Shown here in pieces: positions 24,560 through 30,252 of a DNA stretch of 64,000 nucleotides; position 1 is the stretch's first letter; each line of letters starts with the position of its first letter. Source of the DNA: Candidatus Latescibacterota bacterium. GTDB taxonomy: Bacteria; Latescibacterota; UBA2968; GCA-2709665. Below the pieces are notes generated by a model. It did not search any database, was not told where the DNA came from, and worked only from the letters and a program-made list of their open reading frames with translations. Made by a program: the position numbers and the translations under genes. The stretch is from the NCBI GenBank assembly GCA_965226795.1, contig CBDDDZ010000005.1, forward strand, positions 800,001 to 864,000. The letters are read 5' to 3'.

Positions 24560-26314
24560 ATGACGGAAATTGATCCTATTACCCGTGAGATCATGCAGAA
24601 TGCGCTTGCCGCGGCCGCCGATGAAATGAGCGCCGCGCTGTATCGCACGGCCTTTTCCACCATTGTGCGCGATTGCCTGGACTATTCCACCTCGTTGTGC
24701 AACGGAAACGGCCAGATGATCGCGCAGGGCGTGACGATTCCACTGCATCTGGGGTCGGTACCGTACGCGATGGCCGCAATGTTTGAACGCTTCGGCGATG
24801 ACATCGACCCTGGTGACGTGTTCATTCTGAACGATCCTTTCGACGGTGGGATGCATATTCCGGACATCTTTATTGTGCAGCCGATCTTCTGGGAAGGCGA
24901 GCGGGTGGCCTTTGCGGTGAGTACGGCACATCATCTTGACCTAGGCGGACGCCTGCCCGGAAGTTCCGCGTGCGACAACACGGAGATCTTTCAGGAAGGC
25001 CTTCGCATTCCGTGGTTGAAGCTCTATCGCCGGGGCGAGCCGGACGAGTCCATATTTTCCCTGATCCGGGCGAATGTGCGGGTACCGCAGATGACGATCG
25101 GGGATATCCGGGCGCAGTTGGCGGCCTGCCATATCGGGGAGCGGGCGGTGCATTCGCTGATTGAGCGGTACGGACGCGACATGTTCCTGGCATGCGCCCG
25201 GGACCTGATCGACTATACGGAGCGGCTGGTACGGTCGGAGATCGCGTCCTGGCCCGATGGATCCCATACCTTTACCGATTATCTGGACAGCGATGGCGTG
25301 GGCGGCCCCCGGGTGCAAATCCGGGTGACCGTGACCGTGCGGGGAGATTCGCTCACTGCCGATTTCACGGGGACGGACCCCCAGGTCTCGGGGGCGGTCA
25401 ACAGCACGCTCTCGTTTACGGCAGCCGTGGTGGCCCTGTGCGTGCGCGCCGTGATGCGGGAGGAGATTCCGAACACGGAAGGCATGTTCCGGCCGCTGGA
25501 GATCATCGCGCCCGAGGGCACGCTCGTGAATGTGCGGATGCCTGGCGCGTCCTCGATGCGCGGCGTGACGGGGTTTCGGATGGCGGACGTGGTATTCGGG
25601 GCGTTGGCCGGGCTGCTCCCCGACCGGGTGCTGGCAGCGGGCGAGGGCGGCAATACGCTGGTGATCATCGGCGGCCAACGTCAGGACCGGTCGCCCTATG
25701 TCTACTATGAGTTGCTCTCCGGAACCTGGGGCGCCCGGCCGGATCGGGACGGAAACGACGGTTTGTGCAATCCGGCGAACGTGGCCAGCAATATTCCCAT
25801 TGAACAGGCAGAGTGCGAATATCCGGTCAGGATCGACCGGTACGGACTGGTTTGCGACAGCGCGGGCGCCGGACGATATCGGGGCGGCCTGGCGATCGAG
25901 CGGGAGTGGACTCTGCTCGCGGGGGAGGCGCACCTGGCAATTCGGTCCGATCGAAGAGACCACCTGCCATACGGATTGTACGGGGGCGGGCCGGCGACAG
26001 GATCGAACAATGTGCTGTATCATAAAGATGGCAGCAAGGTGTTGCCGACCATGATATCAACGACGATGTCGGCCGGTGAGCGAATCTACCACCGCCAGGC
26101 GGGTGGAGGCGGATGGGGCGACCCGATGGAACGGGACCCCGAGGCCGTCGCGCGGGACGTAAAGAACGGGAAGGTATCCGTGAAACACGCGCGGGAGCAG
26201 TACGGCGTGGTGTTGGACCCCACGAACCTCGCGGTGTGCGAGACGGAAACCGCGGACACGCGACAACGGATGGCAGCGCCTCGTGCCCGGCGGGACGGTC
26301 GGGATCCGGATTGA
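24560..26314 (+). CDS. Hydantoinase B/oxoprolinase subunit
   Basis: IDPITREI, RTAFSTIVRD, LNDPFDGGMHIPD, HHLDLGG, FQEG, GGGGWGDP. Alternative start at 24524. Confidence 0.92.
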   Translation: MTEIDPITREIMQNALAAAADEMSAALYRTAFSTIVRDCLDYSTSLCNGNGQMIAQGVTIPLHLGSVPYAMAAMFERFGDDIDPGDVFILNDPFDGGMHIPDIFIVQPIFWEGERVAFAVSTAHHLDLGGRLPGSSACDNTEIFQEGLRIPWLKLYRRGEPDESIFSLIRANVRVPQMTIGDIRAQLAACHIGERAVHSLIERYGRDMFLACARDLIDYTERLVRSEIASWPDGSHTFTDYLDSDGVGGPRVQIRVTVTVRGDSLTADFTGTDPQVSGAVNSTLSFTAAVVALCVRAVMREEIPNTEGMFRPLEIIAPEGTLVNVRMPGASSMRGVTGFRMADVVFGALAGLLPDRVLAAGEGGNTLVIIGGQRQDRSPYVYYELLSGTWGARPDRDGNDGLCNPANVASNIPIEQAECEYPVRIDRYGLVCDSAGAGRYRGGLAIEREWTLLAGEAHLAIRSDRRDHLPYGLYGGGPATGSNNVLYHKDGSKVLPTMISTTMSAGERIYHRQAGGGGWGDPMERDPEAVARDVKNGKVSVKHAREQYGVVLDPTNLAVCETETADTRQRMAAPRARRDGRDPD

Positions 26315-26339
26315 CTGATAACAGAAAGCAGGATATATT
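26311..26339 (+). promoter_or_regulatory. Putative sigma70 promoter of ankyrin gene 1
   Basis: TTGACT, 17 nt, TATATT; the paralog at 29496 has the same layout. Confidence 0.6.
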
Positions 26340-26388
26340 TTAGTTTAATGACCGGGGTTTTCACTGAAATCAAAATCGGAGGTGGTCT

Positions 26389-27888
26389 ATGCCCTGGACG
26401 ATAGGACGGTCTGCTGTGTTGCTGATGCTGTTGGGCGCGGCAGGATGCGGCGCCTCGTTGGTGTGCCGAGCATGATCGACAGCTTGGAGGTGCAAGTCCT
26501 CTATCCAGCCTGATGGCGGCGAAGGATTAGCGAAGCGCAAGGGCGTCGTCGCGAGGCGGTGTCTGAAGGAAGCGTGTAGCAAAGTCGCGACCCGATGGAC
26601 AAGAACCGGATATGAGGCCTACCCGGCGGGACGAGCGAGCCAATGATCGCGAAGTCCACAGCCATCAAGGGCCGGGGTGGTAAATGCGGCGGGTATGCGA
26701 TGAAGGCGGTCGGTCTTACCTCGGGAGGTCTGCGTCGTGTCCGGAAAGTCCGGACTGAGCGGTAACGTAAGGGCCGTGATCGCGGCGCAGAAGTCAGCAG
26801 AGGGCATAGTAGCCGGGCGACCGGCGAAGGCCCGAACGATGGACAGGACAAGTAGGACGATACGCTCATGCGTACCATGCGGCAGAAAATCCAGATGGAA
26901 CTGGCCTTGGCGCCGGTGGCGAAGGGTGAAGCCCGGGACGCCGGTGCTGAAGGGACCGAAGTGCGCGTGGCGCGTGTCGACCCCGAACGCCCTGCGGCCC
27001 AAGCTCGGGCTCGCTCCTCTTTCGCCCGGCTTGACCGCATAAATCCATCGAACCGCCGTGTACGGACCCGTACGCACGGTGGTGTGGGAGGGGCGGAGCC
27101 GCAAGGCTCCCCCCTATCCCGATTTGGAACTGTCGAAACGCGGAGACCTGCAGGCGGTAGAGCAGGCGTTGCAACGTGGAAGCAACGTGAATGCCAGGAC
27201 GGTTCAGGGGCACAGCCCGTTGTCGCTTGCGGCCCGGGAGGGCCACCCGGACGTGGTTCGTGCCCTGATTCAGGCCGGCGCGGATCAGGACGCCGTGGCA
27301 TGGTCCTTAAGCACACATCCGCGCCCCTGTGCATTTCGCCACCAGGGGTCCGAACTCACGAGGGAACGTTTCGTGAACGCCGACAGTTCCGGGCCGCAGT
27401 CCAGGTTCATGGCCGAGAGTACGGAAATCGATGTGGTCTGGGTGCTGAAAGATGGGAAAACACCCCTGATGCTCGCCGCCGAGAGGGGTCACCTGGATGT
27501 GGTTGAAGCGCTGGTCGACAACGGTGCCGATGTGCGGTTGACAAGCGGCGGCTATTGGGCGCTCGACACAAAGCCCGATAGGGAGAGCTTCGACTTTCCT
27601 GCTTACCCGAGTGTTCCCCAGCCTCGAGATCCTGGCGACGTCTCTGGCCATTTCCTTCAACATAGCCGCTATTATAGCCATGAATCTTATGGATACGGCG
27701 ACGACGTTGAAACGGAAGACGCCTCTGGCAAACTCTCCGCCCGTGGGTTTCACGGTTATCCCCGGCGGTTTTACGACTCGCCTGACAGAAAGACCGCAAT
27801 GGATCTGGCGTATGAAAATGGTCATTTGGATATCGTCGATTTTCTCCGTAATGCCATCCGGACGAGGCCTGCATCGAGTTCAAGATAG
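26389..27888 (+). CDS. Ankyrin-repeat lipoprotein split by a group II intron: join(26389..26460,27124..27888), 278 aa after splicing
   Basis: Exon 1 is MPWTIGRSAVLLMLLGAAGCGASL (GGAGG RBS, lipobox AAG-C). Exon 2 is LELSKRGDLQAV...GHSPLSLAAREGH...GKTPLMLAAERGH. The junction matches the paralog's GCGASL-MELSQRGD. Confidence 0.85.
26461..27123 (+). mobile_element. Group IIC intron, ORF-less (reverse transcriptase/maturase deleted)
   Basis: 5' GTGTG; GGTCTTACCTCGGGAGGTCTG and GAAGTCAGCAGAGGGCATAGTAG...GAAGGCCCGAAC core segments; short domain V GAACCGCCGTGTACGGACCCGTACGCACGGTGGTGTG (CGC triad); domain VI ending CCCTATCCCGAT. Confidence 0.93.
26868..27042 (+). pseudogene. Remnant of intron-encoded protein (N-terminus joined out of frame to C-terminus)
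   Basis: MRQKIQMELALAPVAKGEA... resembles IIC IEP N-termini; KLGLAPLSPGLTA* in another frame resembles the C-terminus; no YADD or RT motifs. Confidence 0.65.
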
Positions 27889-27916
27889 GACCCTGGAGCG
27901 GTCTTCTCCGTTGGAG

Positions 27917-27990
27917 ATTCGGTCTCGTAAAAGCGTTATCTTGCGAGACCGAATTTTGTGGTATGCGCGAGTTGTGTCCATGAAGTTCGT
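27917..27990. repeat. Conserved hairpin element, copy 1 (downstream of ankyrin gene 1)
   Basis: ATTCGGTCTCGTAA...TTGCGAGACCGAAT stem followed by GTATG..AGTTGTGTCCAT..GTTCG; similar copy at 30284. Confidence 0.75.
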
Positions 27991-28084
27991 TATTGCAGGT
28001 TTGTTGGTCTAACCATAATACAATGACTTGAGTAAGAAAACGGCATTTCGTGAATTATTTTGGCTCGGCCAACGGAGCACATTG

Positions 28085-28747
28085 ATGAAATTCGTCCTTT
28101 TTTTCTTGTTCCTATACCTCGGTACCTCCCCCGTTTTTGCACAGGAATCGGACGCGGATTCCACGCGGAGTGAACGGCCGACTTTTTCGATGACGCCTAC
28201 GTGAGTAGGCTGACCCGGCGAAGGCGCACCACTCCGTGGGAGTGGCATCCATACGAAATATACACTTTCGGGGCGGTACGTAGATACCTCTATGGACCGA
28301 CCGCAGTGGCGGTTCACGGCTAATTACCGGCTGCATCATCGCCTCCAGGTCGGGGTTGAGCTGAATCCGAAAGCAAAGGAGGCAGGACCTCTTGTAACCC
28401 TGTTTTTGTTTACCGAGACCGAGACGCGGCCTGCGCTCTTCTTGGGCACGAGTTCGGATCGAATCGGTTCGCCGTCGGGCGAGCAGTCCTACTTCGCGAC
28501 CATAAGTAAATATATACCTCGGTTGCGCATTTCCTTTTACGGCAGTTTGAATTATTCGGAATGGGACGGGAAGTTCAATGTTCCCTTTGGCGCGGGGGTC
28601 GAATTGGGCAAAGGCTTTTCATTTCGACCGATGTACGACGGCGACCGGGGGCACGTGATGCTGAATTATTTCGCGGCGCAATACGGTGTCAGTTTGATGT
28701 ACGTGTGGCTCGAAACCATGGGTATTTCGTTTTCTCTCGGGTTTTAG
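28085..28747 (+). CDS. Putative UxxU selenoprotein, exported small outer-membrane beta-barrel-like (220 aa)
   Basis: GGAG RBS; signal peptide MKFVLFFLFLYLGTSPVFA-Q; in-frame TGA at 28202 and 28211 (T-U-V-G-U-P); frame continues into ORF 28292..28747 with amphipathic strands ending in ...ISFSLGF. Confidence 0.75.
28229..28245 (+). promoter_or_regulatory. SECIS-like hairpin
   Basis: CCACTCC-GTG-GGAGTGG; G-first loop 22 and 31 nt after the two TGAs. Confidence 0.6.
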
Positions 28748-28759
28748 TGTGGAGGTTCA

Positions 28760-29443
28760 ATGCGATTTCGCTATCTCTTATTTCTGATTGTTTTGGCCAG
28801 TTCGGCTTCGCTTATGGCCGAAGCTCAGATTCCCGATAAGGCACTCTGTAGTGTCTGTGCATTGAAGGGCGGCGAGACGGAGTTGGAAAAGGTCAAGGCC
28901 CATTCTGAATATGAAGGCAAGGCGTACTATTTCTGTTCTGAAAACTGCAAAAAGGAATTCGACGCAGATCCCGTGGCTTATTTGCCACCGGTTTTCCCAC
29001 GGCCTGCACCAGCCATCGTCGTTGAAACGCTGGAGGGAGGGGACAGGGCGTTGGCGGAATCGAAAGGCAAAGTCGTACTCGTGGATTTCTGGGCGACGTG
29101 GTGCAATCCCTGTCTTGAGACAATGCCCCGGTTGCAGAAACTCTACAGCGCTTATTCCGGCAGGGGTTTTGACATCTGGGGTGTGTCAATAGATGAGGAC
29201 AGAGATCGGGTTCAAAAGATCAGAAAGATGGTGGGCAAACTGGGCATTTCCTATCCCGTCTTTGTCGATGCGAAACAGACGCCTGCCTGGTATCAGTTCA
29301 AGGTGAAAGCGATTCCGGCCATGTATCTTCTCGATAGAGAGAGTCGGATCGTGGCGCAGTGGTCGGGAAAGATAGACTACGATGAAGTGGAGAAGGAAGT
29401 CTTGAGACTTCTTGAAAACGGGGTCGATGTCGAAGGGCCATGA
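28760..29443 (+). CDS. Exported YHS-domain + TlpA-like redoxin fusion
   Basis: Signal peptide; LCSVC...EYEGKAYYFCSENCKKEFDADPVAY (YHS); GKVVLVDFWATWCNPC...VKAIP (TlpA). Confidence 0.88.
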   Translation: MRFRYLLFLIVLASSASLMAEAQIPDKALCSVCALKGGETELEKVKAHSEYEGKAYYFCSENCKKEFDADPVAYLPPVFPRPAPAIVVETLEGGDRALAESKGKVVLVDFWATWCNPCLETMPRLQKLYSAYSGRGFDIWGVSIDEDRDRVQKIRKMVGKLGISYPVFVDAKQTPAWYQFKVKAIPAMYLLDRESRIVAQWSGKIDYDEVEKEVLRLLENGVDVEGP

Positions 29444-29495
29444 GCGAATTCGTCGCGGAGAATTCCGGCTATGGTATTTGGGGTCGAGATACGAT

Positions 29496-29574: not shown

Positions 29575-30252
29575 ATGTTTAGAACGATCAAGCCATTTGC
29601 ATTTCTGCTGATCGTGATGAGCGTGGGGGGTTGCGGCGCCTCGTTGATGGAATTGTCGCAGCGCGGCGACATCCAGGGCGTCCAGCGGGCCTTGCTCCGC
29701 GGAAGCGACGTGAACGCCACGACGCGTCACGGGCACACGCCATTGACGCTGGCGGCCAGGGAAGGGCACCTGGAGGTGGTTCAGGCATTGATCCAGGCCG
29801 GTGCGGATCTCGAAGCCAGGGCGTGGAGGTATATATTCGTTGCACAGGCAGAACAATATCCACGCGATCCCGAGTATGTCCGGGAACAGTTTGTCAATGT
29901 CGACAGTTCCGGTCCTCAGTCGCTGTTCATGGCTGAGCGAACAACCCGTGGTGACGCAATCCAGGTGCCGATAGACGGGAAGACAGCGATGATGTTCGCA
30001 GCTGAGATGGGCCACCTGGAAGTTGTTGAAGCGCTCATCCGGAGCGATGCGGACGTAAGTGCAAAGAGCGGCCGTTCCGGCGAACACATTTACAAGCCCA
30101 TCCGCAATCGTTACCAATCTTTTAACCGGCGGCTTAAACGTTCGAACGAAAGAAAAACCGCAATGGACTTTGCAATTGAGAACGGGCATAAGGATATCGT
30201 GAATCTTCTTATAAAGGCCGACCTGCGGTTGCTTGAAGTGAGCAACAGGTAA
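29575..30252 (+). CDS. Ankyrin-repeat lipoprotein (intron-less paralog)
   Basis: GGAGGAGG RBS, lipobox VGG-C, GHTPLTLAAREGH, GKTAMMFAAEMGH, KTAMDFAIENGH. Confidence 0.88.
   Translation: MFRTIKPFAFLLIVMSVGGCGASLMELSQRGDIQGVQRALLRGSDVNATTRHGHTPLTLAAREGHLEVVQALIQAGADLEARAWRYIFVAQAEQYPRDPEYVREQFVNVDSSGPQSLFMAERTTRGDAIQVPIDGKTAMMFAAEMGHLEVVEALIRSDADVSAKSGRSGEHIYKPIRNRYQSFNRRLKRSNERKTAMDFAIENGHKDIVNLLIKADLRLLEVSNR

Follow-up and report, generated by a model that had tools for sequence, protein, structure and literature searches.

Group IIC introns usually lie behind terminators or attC sites and generally need a maturase in vivo. They are marked by a CGC triad, a short EBS1 and a stem-loop ahead of the 5' splice site, as described in work on B.h.I1 in which exon ligation failed for a copy whose exon stem was mispaired (PMC1702495), and surveys describe them as avoiding coding sequence (PMC7306698, PMC8919778). 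In A.v.I2, a 4-bp domain VI helix is reported to go with protein-free branching, and the authors speculate that there is selection for resealing transcripts without protein (PMC4748821); the published self-splicing assay of A.v.I2 used 100 mM Mg and a temperature of 55 °C. For RmInt1, the in vivo splicing level is given as 0.07% (PMC3035460). Ankyrin and other eukaryotic-like proteins have been reported in sponge Latescibacterota (PMC12993501).

Here, we describe a class C intron that separates the predicted signal peptide from the ankyrin domain of a lipoprotein gene in a stretch of 64,000 nt of Candidatus Latescibacterota DNA (the window). It is probably an off-target insertion that largely knocks out a dispensable paralog. 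Wherever a habitat is given for a run containing the stretch, that run is a sponge metagenome or metatranscriptome, and the close protein homologs carry the source names of Gemmatimonadota MAGs.

The intron and its class

The intron and its parts are as follows:
26461..27123, + strand, group IIC intron with deleted maturase gene (Rfam, sequence comparison)
26641..26644, + strand, EBS1 (CAAT), loop position from the Rfam alignment
27050..27083, + strand, catalytic domain V with CGC triad (Rfam, sequence)
27086..27120, + strand, domain VI with a bulged A at 27116, a 4-bp basal helix and 7 nt to the 3' splice site (Rfam, sequence)

The element is 663 nt long, starting with GTGTG and ending with CCCGAT. 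Three Rfam models match above their cut-offs (group-II-D1D4-3 at 26545-26714, 141.2 bits, E 3.3e-29; D1D4-1 at 26751-26832, 52.1 bits; Intron_gpII at 27051-27123, 43.5 bits), and the resemblance is therefore not a chance one. The GUGYG 5' end, the AY 3' end, domains I-VI, the catalytic domain V and the bulged A of domain VI are all present. Domain V has CGC instead of the AGC triad, a class C mark, and the EBS1-IBS1 pairing has the 3-4 bp typical of this class, with CAAT facing the final four exon-1 bases GTTG in three Watson-Crick pairs and one G-U. The intron is confirmed as group II, class IIC.

The ribozyme core looks intact and, by these comparisons, no more decayed than that of active copies. 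The D1D4-3 model aligns from end to end without an insert, and domain I keeps 44/48 model pairs (43/48 in an intact copy from the relative G008), with one broken pair unique to the window copy and one compensatory change. Domain V is identical among all 5 intron copies compared, and the Rfam scores equal those of active copies.

The boundaries are independently supported by the relative G013, in which the bases flanking the site are identical with nothing between them and the gene is an intact frame of 278 codons. The ends, the IIC class and the position between codons 24 and 25 given in the preliminary description are borne out.

The host gene

The split gene and its surroundings comprise:
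26311..26339, + strand, predicted sigma-70-like promoter, 10/12 match (sequence match)
26389..26460, + strand, exon 1, 24 codons, predicted lipoprotein signal peptide with lipobox Cys, ending GCGASL (homolog alignment)
27124..27888, + strand, exon 2, 254 open codons, ankyrin repeats and two long insertions (Pfam Ank, E 6e-24)
27920..27951, + strand, inverted repeat 3' of the gene, likely transcript end, with a similar repeat behind the paralog (sequence; 84% match over 70 nt to the paralog 3' region)
29575..30252, + strand, uninterrupted paralog of 225 aa, 43% identical, of a different subfamily (sequence; covered by RNA contigs)

RNA contig depth climbs near 26350, with a contig of run X5 starting at 26364 behind adapter letters, and the RNA contigs stop at 27890-27973, near the inverted repeat, for which a terminator scan gives no call. 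Exon 1 is collinear with 21 uninterrupted homologous genes from the loci of 14 relatives, and a lipobox-like pattern, in the form that we take to be the usual one, is found in 37/41 homologous proteins. In the structure model, the helix pairs are predicted with confidence, and the loops at 61-109 and 144-220 have low confidence (mean pLDDT 56.9, the loops being too poor for judging R69, R99 or Y194). The lipoprotein may be host-facing.

The intron lies between codons 24 and 25, and an unspliced message stops after 4 intron codons. Both exons are open, and the earlier statement that a full-length lipoprotein requires splicing holds; the companion statement that splicing restores the gene is right on paper for the reading frame, and spliced RNA was not seen.

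The intact paralog lies 1.7 kb downstream. Between the two ankyrin genes, positions 28100-29450 hold a 151-aa ORF without a Pfam match and a YHS-thioredoxin gene, a block with no counterpart in 40 kb of G013. Ankyrin lipoproteins P0002-P0012 and P0044-P0048 belong to a tandem array in which several subfamilies, all with long variable loops, are represented; a number of them resemble subfamily mosaics, and others are split or internally duplicated.

Empty site and age of the insertion

Homologs of the gene are present in 14/14 same-genus genomes, where the 14 loci hold 21 gene copies, none of them interrupted; the intron is absent from the loci of all 14 relatives. The window is syntenic with G013 on both flanks. 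The protein cluster of the split gene has three members from three records, each with its start inside domain V, so all three are intron-bearing, and the intron allele occurs in every same-species record examined. The insertion would accordingly date, as inferred from these genomes, to after the split from G013 and before the divergence of the strains sampled. In a metagenome contig collection, a pattern search with 34 nt of exon 1 gave no match, and a protein-based scan of the same contigs gave 247 candidates, none confirmed.

The intron family is found in 5/14 same-genus genomes. G008 has two full intron copies with open maturase frames, and the G013 copy, with a differently placed deletion, sits behind a tRNA terminator.

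Target mimicry at the insertion site

One feature of exon 1 bears on the choice of site:
26434..26454, + strand, exon-1 hairpin mimicking the IIC terminator-stem target (DNA fold), ending 6 nt before the intron

As DNA, this hairpin has a stability of -10.5 kcal/mol (z -2.6, 4/200 shuffles as good), against -4.2 kcal/mol (z +0.65) for the intron-free exon of G013. It is weaker than the stems at all five terminator sites of the family (-12.3 to -23.7 kcal/mol). As RNA, the exon stem is not significant in a 45-nt piece (z -0.38) and significant in a 30-nt piece (z -2.6). A terminator scan of 26200-28100 calls none, and the site offers a coding hairpin without a T run instead; sibling copies sit behind terminator hairpins, whereas the window copy does not. 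Seven family copies in the genus have a mappable 5' end, and the six besides the window copy follow strong hairpins.

The sequence of the EBS1 loop varies between copies: CAAT is shared by the window intron and those of G008, whereas the sibling has ATAT and the G013 copy TGAT. In 5/5 copies with an intact 5' end the loop matches the last 3 exon bases, a pattern of covariation. Related full-length introns were collected at 79 loci, 43 with both ends defined (36 were dropped, an end being unplaceable). At least 3 T within the last 8 exon bases are found in 39 of the 43, and in 21 of the 43 the hairpin reaches or exceeds the stability of -10.5 kcal/mol, placing the window site at the family median. 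Among random TTG|T sites on contig C5 (n=3000), 1.3% have such a hairpin so placed; the match at the window site is unusual, yet there are over a hundred such sites on that C5 strand. The coding location is likely explained by the exon-1 hairpin, which mimics the terminator target.

A comparable event is seen in an Acidobacteriaceae MAG, where the full-length relative L102:954-2935, whose EBS1 is identical, interrupts an EAL/HDOD gene; a coding hairpin precedes it, and two Phe codons give the T run. The N-terminal motif there is, we presume, that of the EAL/HDOD family. Four related sites have a long frame over the empty site, and only L102 was kept: L075 and L115 lack a Pfam match in that frame, and at L128 the downstream gene has its own Met. 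Judged from these loci, coding-sequence insertions are rare but recurrent in this intron family.

The maturase gene and possible helpers

Both ends of an intron-encoded RT/maturase gene can be recognised:
26868..26999, + strand, 5' remnant of the RT/maturase gene, 44 codons, 86% identical to residues 1-44 of the intact G008 protein
27000..27042, + strand, 3' remnant with the old stop codon (sequence comparison)

The intron had been called ORF-less. It does lack a full maturase ORF, and the more exact description is an internal deletion that spared 132 nt at the 5' side of the gene and 43 nt at its 3' side, joined at 26999/27000. The window intron is 93-95% identical to full-length 1.88-kb copies and corresponds to the sibling element minus ~1.2 kb of the RT/maturase gene. 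The frame of the 5' remnant continues past the deletion through domains V and VI, up to 27506.

A search of the genome for full-length siblings with an RT gene gives one, at C5:1407808-1409686 (1879 nt, 93% identical to the window copy), directly behind a terminator hairpin. Its maturase gene is divided among three frames by a 1-nt and a 2-nt insertion. Assembly error was considered and rejected for these frameshifts, with identical fragments (81 and 236 aa) recorded for a second assembly too. A tblastn search of the genome (5.41 Mb, 5 contigs, 95.9% complete) with a class C maturase returned, besides the frameshifted sibling, only RTs of another family with 30-34% identity; among the RTs, an intact one at C4:449201-450592 shares just 31% of its residues with the class C protein and is part of a different intron family. 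A candidate for a cognate trans-acting maturase was not found in this genome, and the earlier suggestion that such a protein may serve the intron is not sustained, the sole class C maturase gene being frameshifted.

In G008, the intact 462-aa maturase has the GsI-IIC RT as its best solved-structure match (6ar1, E 3.6e-136, residues 50-457). This family member is a class C RT/maturase without an endonuclease domain, of which the window copy retains remnants. The G013 copy has a different deletion, and the maturase gene was therefore lost at least twice in the family. For the window copy, a deletion after insertion is favoured by the distribution of the junction at 26999/27000, which only one copy has.

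Splicing evidence in RNA

Four of 24 runs were examined, all as contigs: RNA runs X1 and X2 from one study and X5 from another (three sponge metatranscriptomes, two studies), and DNA run X14. Contigs over the 5' border (X1 26332-26506, X2 25900-26506, X5 26364-27093) are unspliced. The 3' border is covered by contigs of X1 (27073-27973, depth 23) and X2 (27073-27933, depth 31) and also of X14, and X5 has no listed contig there. The exon-exon joint of 26460 to 27124 is seen in none of the four runs, nor is a back-joint, in contigs from which rare forms are dropped. Positions 28316-29070 have zero depth in all three RNA runs; the signal is therefore probably RNA, and DNA carry-over looks low.

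Assemblers of this kind prune short links that are several-fold weaker than their neighbours. Logan contigs are described as simplified, with single-count k-mers discarded (PMC12424806). Because rare forms are dropped, the contigs argue against splicing of a large share of the transcripts and are silent on a few percent. They lend nothing to the idea that the gene depends on splicing as a switch, being unspliced at the borders and without the joint in 4/4 runs.

Raised contig depth inside the intron was considered as a sign of excised RNA and rejected, since other family copies map there and each contig has one depth figure. Loose ends of RNA contigs at 26458-26461 (X1, X2) reveal three further family copies in the sponge community; the flanks are a hairpin with a T-run in two and a hairpin in one.

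Selection and decay of exon 2

Exon 2 is without a stop or frameshift in all three intron-bearing records. Its dN/dS to G013 is 0.22, compared with 0.08-0.19 for 8 syntenic neighbours. Polarised counts are 9 synonymous and 12 nonsynonymous changes on this branch versus 7 and 7 on the G013 branch (p 0.74), and branch omega is 0.27-0.43; together, the counts and omega show no clear relaxation.

Three substitutions, R69C, R99S and Y194D, present in both full assemblies, fall at columns invariant in 12/12 other homologs. They account for 3 of 6 unique residues, versus 19/140 (p 0.044, a post hoc test on 3 residues only), and all three score BLOSUM62 <= -1 versus 4/19 (p 0.023, also post hoc). In addition, a variant at 27475, at whole depth in X1 and X5, gives A118P at an ankyrin helix residue that is invariant in 14/14 sequences. 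The three radical substitutions and A118P hint at an early decay of exon 2 in these alignments. T34S, L42P and Q46R were dropped as signs of decay, being common to the intact homologs P0002 and P0005. The preliminary description had named missing spliced reads despite transcription, together with relaxed selection on exon 2, as the marks of a simple knockout; the former is seen in the contigs, and the signal for the latter is weak.

This subfamily (at least 68% identity) occurs in 3/14 same-genus genomes and is missing from the best loci of 11/14 relatives, and among close homologs some recorded forms are split. On these two grounds, the host gene is likely a dispensable paralog.

Interpretation

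The reading that we consider probable is a misdirected insertion. A mobile class C intron of the terminator-hairpin family would have retrohomed into the signal-peptide codons, which were likely hit since the hairpin and the EBS1 match mimic the intron target. Its own maturase gene would then have been lost by internal deletion. With that gene deleted and the gene of the sibling frameshifted, splicing would be poor and the spliced fraction low, and the paralog would be largely silenced, its protein being lost. Against a knockout stand the undecayed ribozyme, the open exon 2, the kept promoter, the presence of the allele in all same-species records examined and the 4-bp domain VI helix, and a minority spliced form may be compatible with the contig data.

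A second reading is leaky, tolerated self-splicing without a maturase, at a low rate and without regulation, that yields some full-length lipoprotein. It draws on the intact core, on EBS1 pairing with 4 exon bases here versus 3 at terminator sites, on a domain VI helix like that of A.v.I2 (PMC4748821), on an open exon 2 with omega below 1, and on the presence of the gene in RNA. We regard it as rather unlikely. The spliced joint is absent from the contigs of 4/4 runs, the published A.v.I2 reaction was run at 55 °C in 100 mM Mg, the stem in the exon has little stability as RNA, exon 2 has radical substitutions, and ribosomes on the maturase-remnant frame would run through domains V and VI. The 4-bp helix is moreover common to terminator-site copies and is therefore no adaptation to the window site. 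Should raw reads show junctions, the locus would offer a rare case of a bacterial intron that works in vivo without a maturase. A broader proposal appears improbable, namely that this class C intron, which has an A.v.I2-type domain VI, a hairpin in coding sequence and no cognate maturase, splices itself in its cold-water symbiont and has become a fixed throttle or a conditional switch on a host-facing ankyrin lipoprotein; if true, it would be a second C.te.I1-like domestication and, as far as the literature searched shows, the first from class C.

A regulated switch, in which self-splicing or a trans-acting maturase is turned on conditionally and controls display of a host-interaction protein, is what the preliminary description had proposed. 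The position between signal peptide and ankyrin domain, where the intron halts translation at once, its occurrence in all same-species records examined and the precedent of C.te.I1 (PMC4024640) speak for it. The proposal is nevertheless very hard to maintain: contigs of three RNA runs from two studies contain no spliced form, an unbroken class C maturase gene is missing from the genome (the RT on C4, though intact, being of another intron family), 0/14 relatives have the intron here, there are no alternative exons and no shifted splice site as in C.te.I1, and the position is explained by target mimicry. Equally remote is the notion that unspliced RNA yields a signal-less cytoplasmic ankyrin protein that starts at an in-frame GTG of domain V (27058 or 27079) or at a TTG, position 27124. 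From 27058 onward there is an open frame, proteins of 269 and 276 aa have been annotated by gene callers, and exon 2 lies under RNA contigs, but these starts are inside or directly behind the stable domain V/VI stems, no ribosome-binding site is visible at a proper distance, and a lipobox occurs in 37 of the 41 homologs.

Gene callers that place the start codon within domain V, and so present the product as a complete ankyrin protein of the cytoplasm, fall into an annotation trap, which inflates the counts of eukaryotic-like proteins in sponge symbionts. Read as a misdirected insertion, the locus is a clean natural case of a class C misfire onto terminator-like codons, with the empty allele, the siblings, the EBS1 covariation and RNA on hand, and with L102 as a second hit in an unrelated genome.

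Other group II introns in the lineage

Fragments of IIC introns also occur on C5 of this genome (G000): a 5' fragment behind a terminator hairpin from 547133 onward, and a decayed 3' fragment at 605355-605479. A second ORF-less group II intron of another family (G000:C5:2226337-2227092, - strand, locus L037, 756 nt, Rfam D1D4-4) splits an ABC permease gene whose empty site lies within frames of 812-831 codons in G008, G009 and G013. In G000, this permease gene has a frameshift upstream of the intron, and 601 nt of its exon 2 are 100% identical to G008.

ORF-less copies of the second family (about 690-770 nt) occur in G001, G003, G008 and G010 (L038-L062), at several sites per genome, with 26 Rfam matches in G001 and 16 in G008. 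Three RT-bearing copies with shared flanks (C4:449043-451045, C2:364397 onward and C5:752246-754098) comprise one intact frame of 463 codons and two with many small deletions; beside the copy on C5 is a transposase remnant, presumably IS1380-like. From these sequences, the second family looks like a spreading non-autonomous one, whose ORF-less copies are common in the genus. This lineage seems prone to stray introns in genes that it needs only weakly.

Comparison with known systems

In the literature searched, mostly without subscription papers, neither this intron nor any symbiont gene split by a class C intron is described. The window intron resembles B.h.I1, O.i.I1, A.v.I2 and GsI-IIC in its CGC triad, short EBS1 and pre-intron stem-loop (features as given in PMC1702495). 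The intact protein of its family is closest to the GsI-IIC RT among solved structures, and its 4-bp domain VI helix recalls the one reported for A.v.I2 (PMC4748821). It differs from terminator-targeting class C introns in that its site is within coding sequence that is transcribed, where the preceding hairpin is made of codons and no T run follows, and in having no maturase gene.

As in ORF-less introns served in trans, there is a deleted maturase gene with remnants and a related intron in the genome (as described in PMC4424553), but the related copy here is itself frameshifted. C.te.I1 of Clostridium tetani is likewise described as ORF-less, in a gene for a surface-type protein and without a cognate maturase (PMC4024640). 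According to the same account, it is a IIB intron that splices in vivo, uses a 5' splice site that has shifted and joins to several 3' exons (PMC4024640). The window copy has standard ends, no alternative exons and no spliced form in the contigs, and it is absent from the loci of 14/14 relatives.

The recA gene of Geobacillus kaustophilus reportedly hosts a group II intron. Sense-strand insertion in a protein gene is also described for Avi.groEL and RmInt1 (PMC3035460). The groEL and recA cases concern conserved housekeeping genes, whereas the gene split here is a patchily kept paralog.
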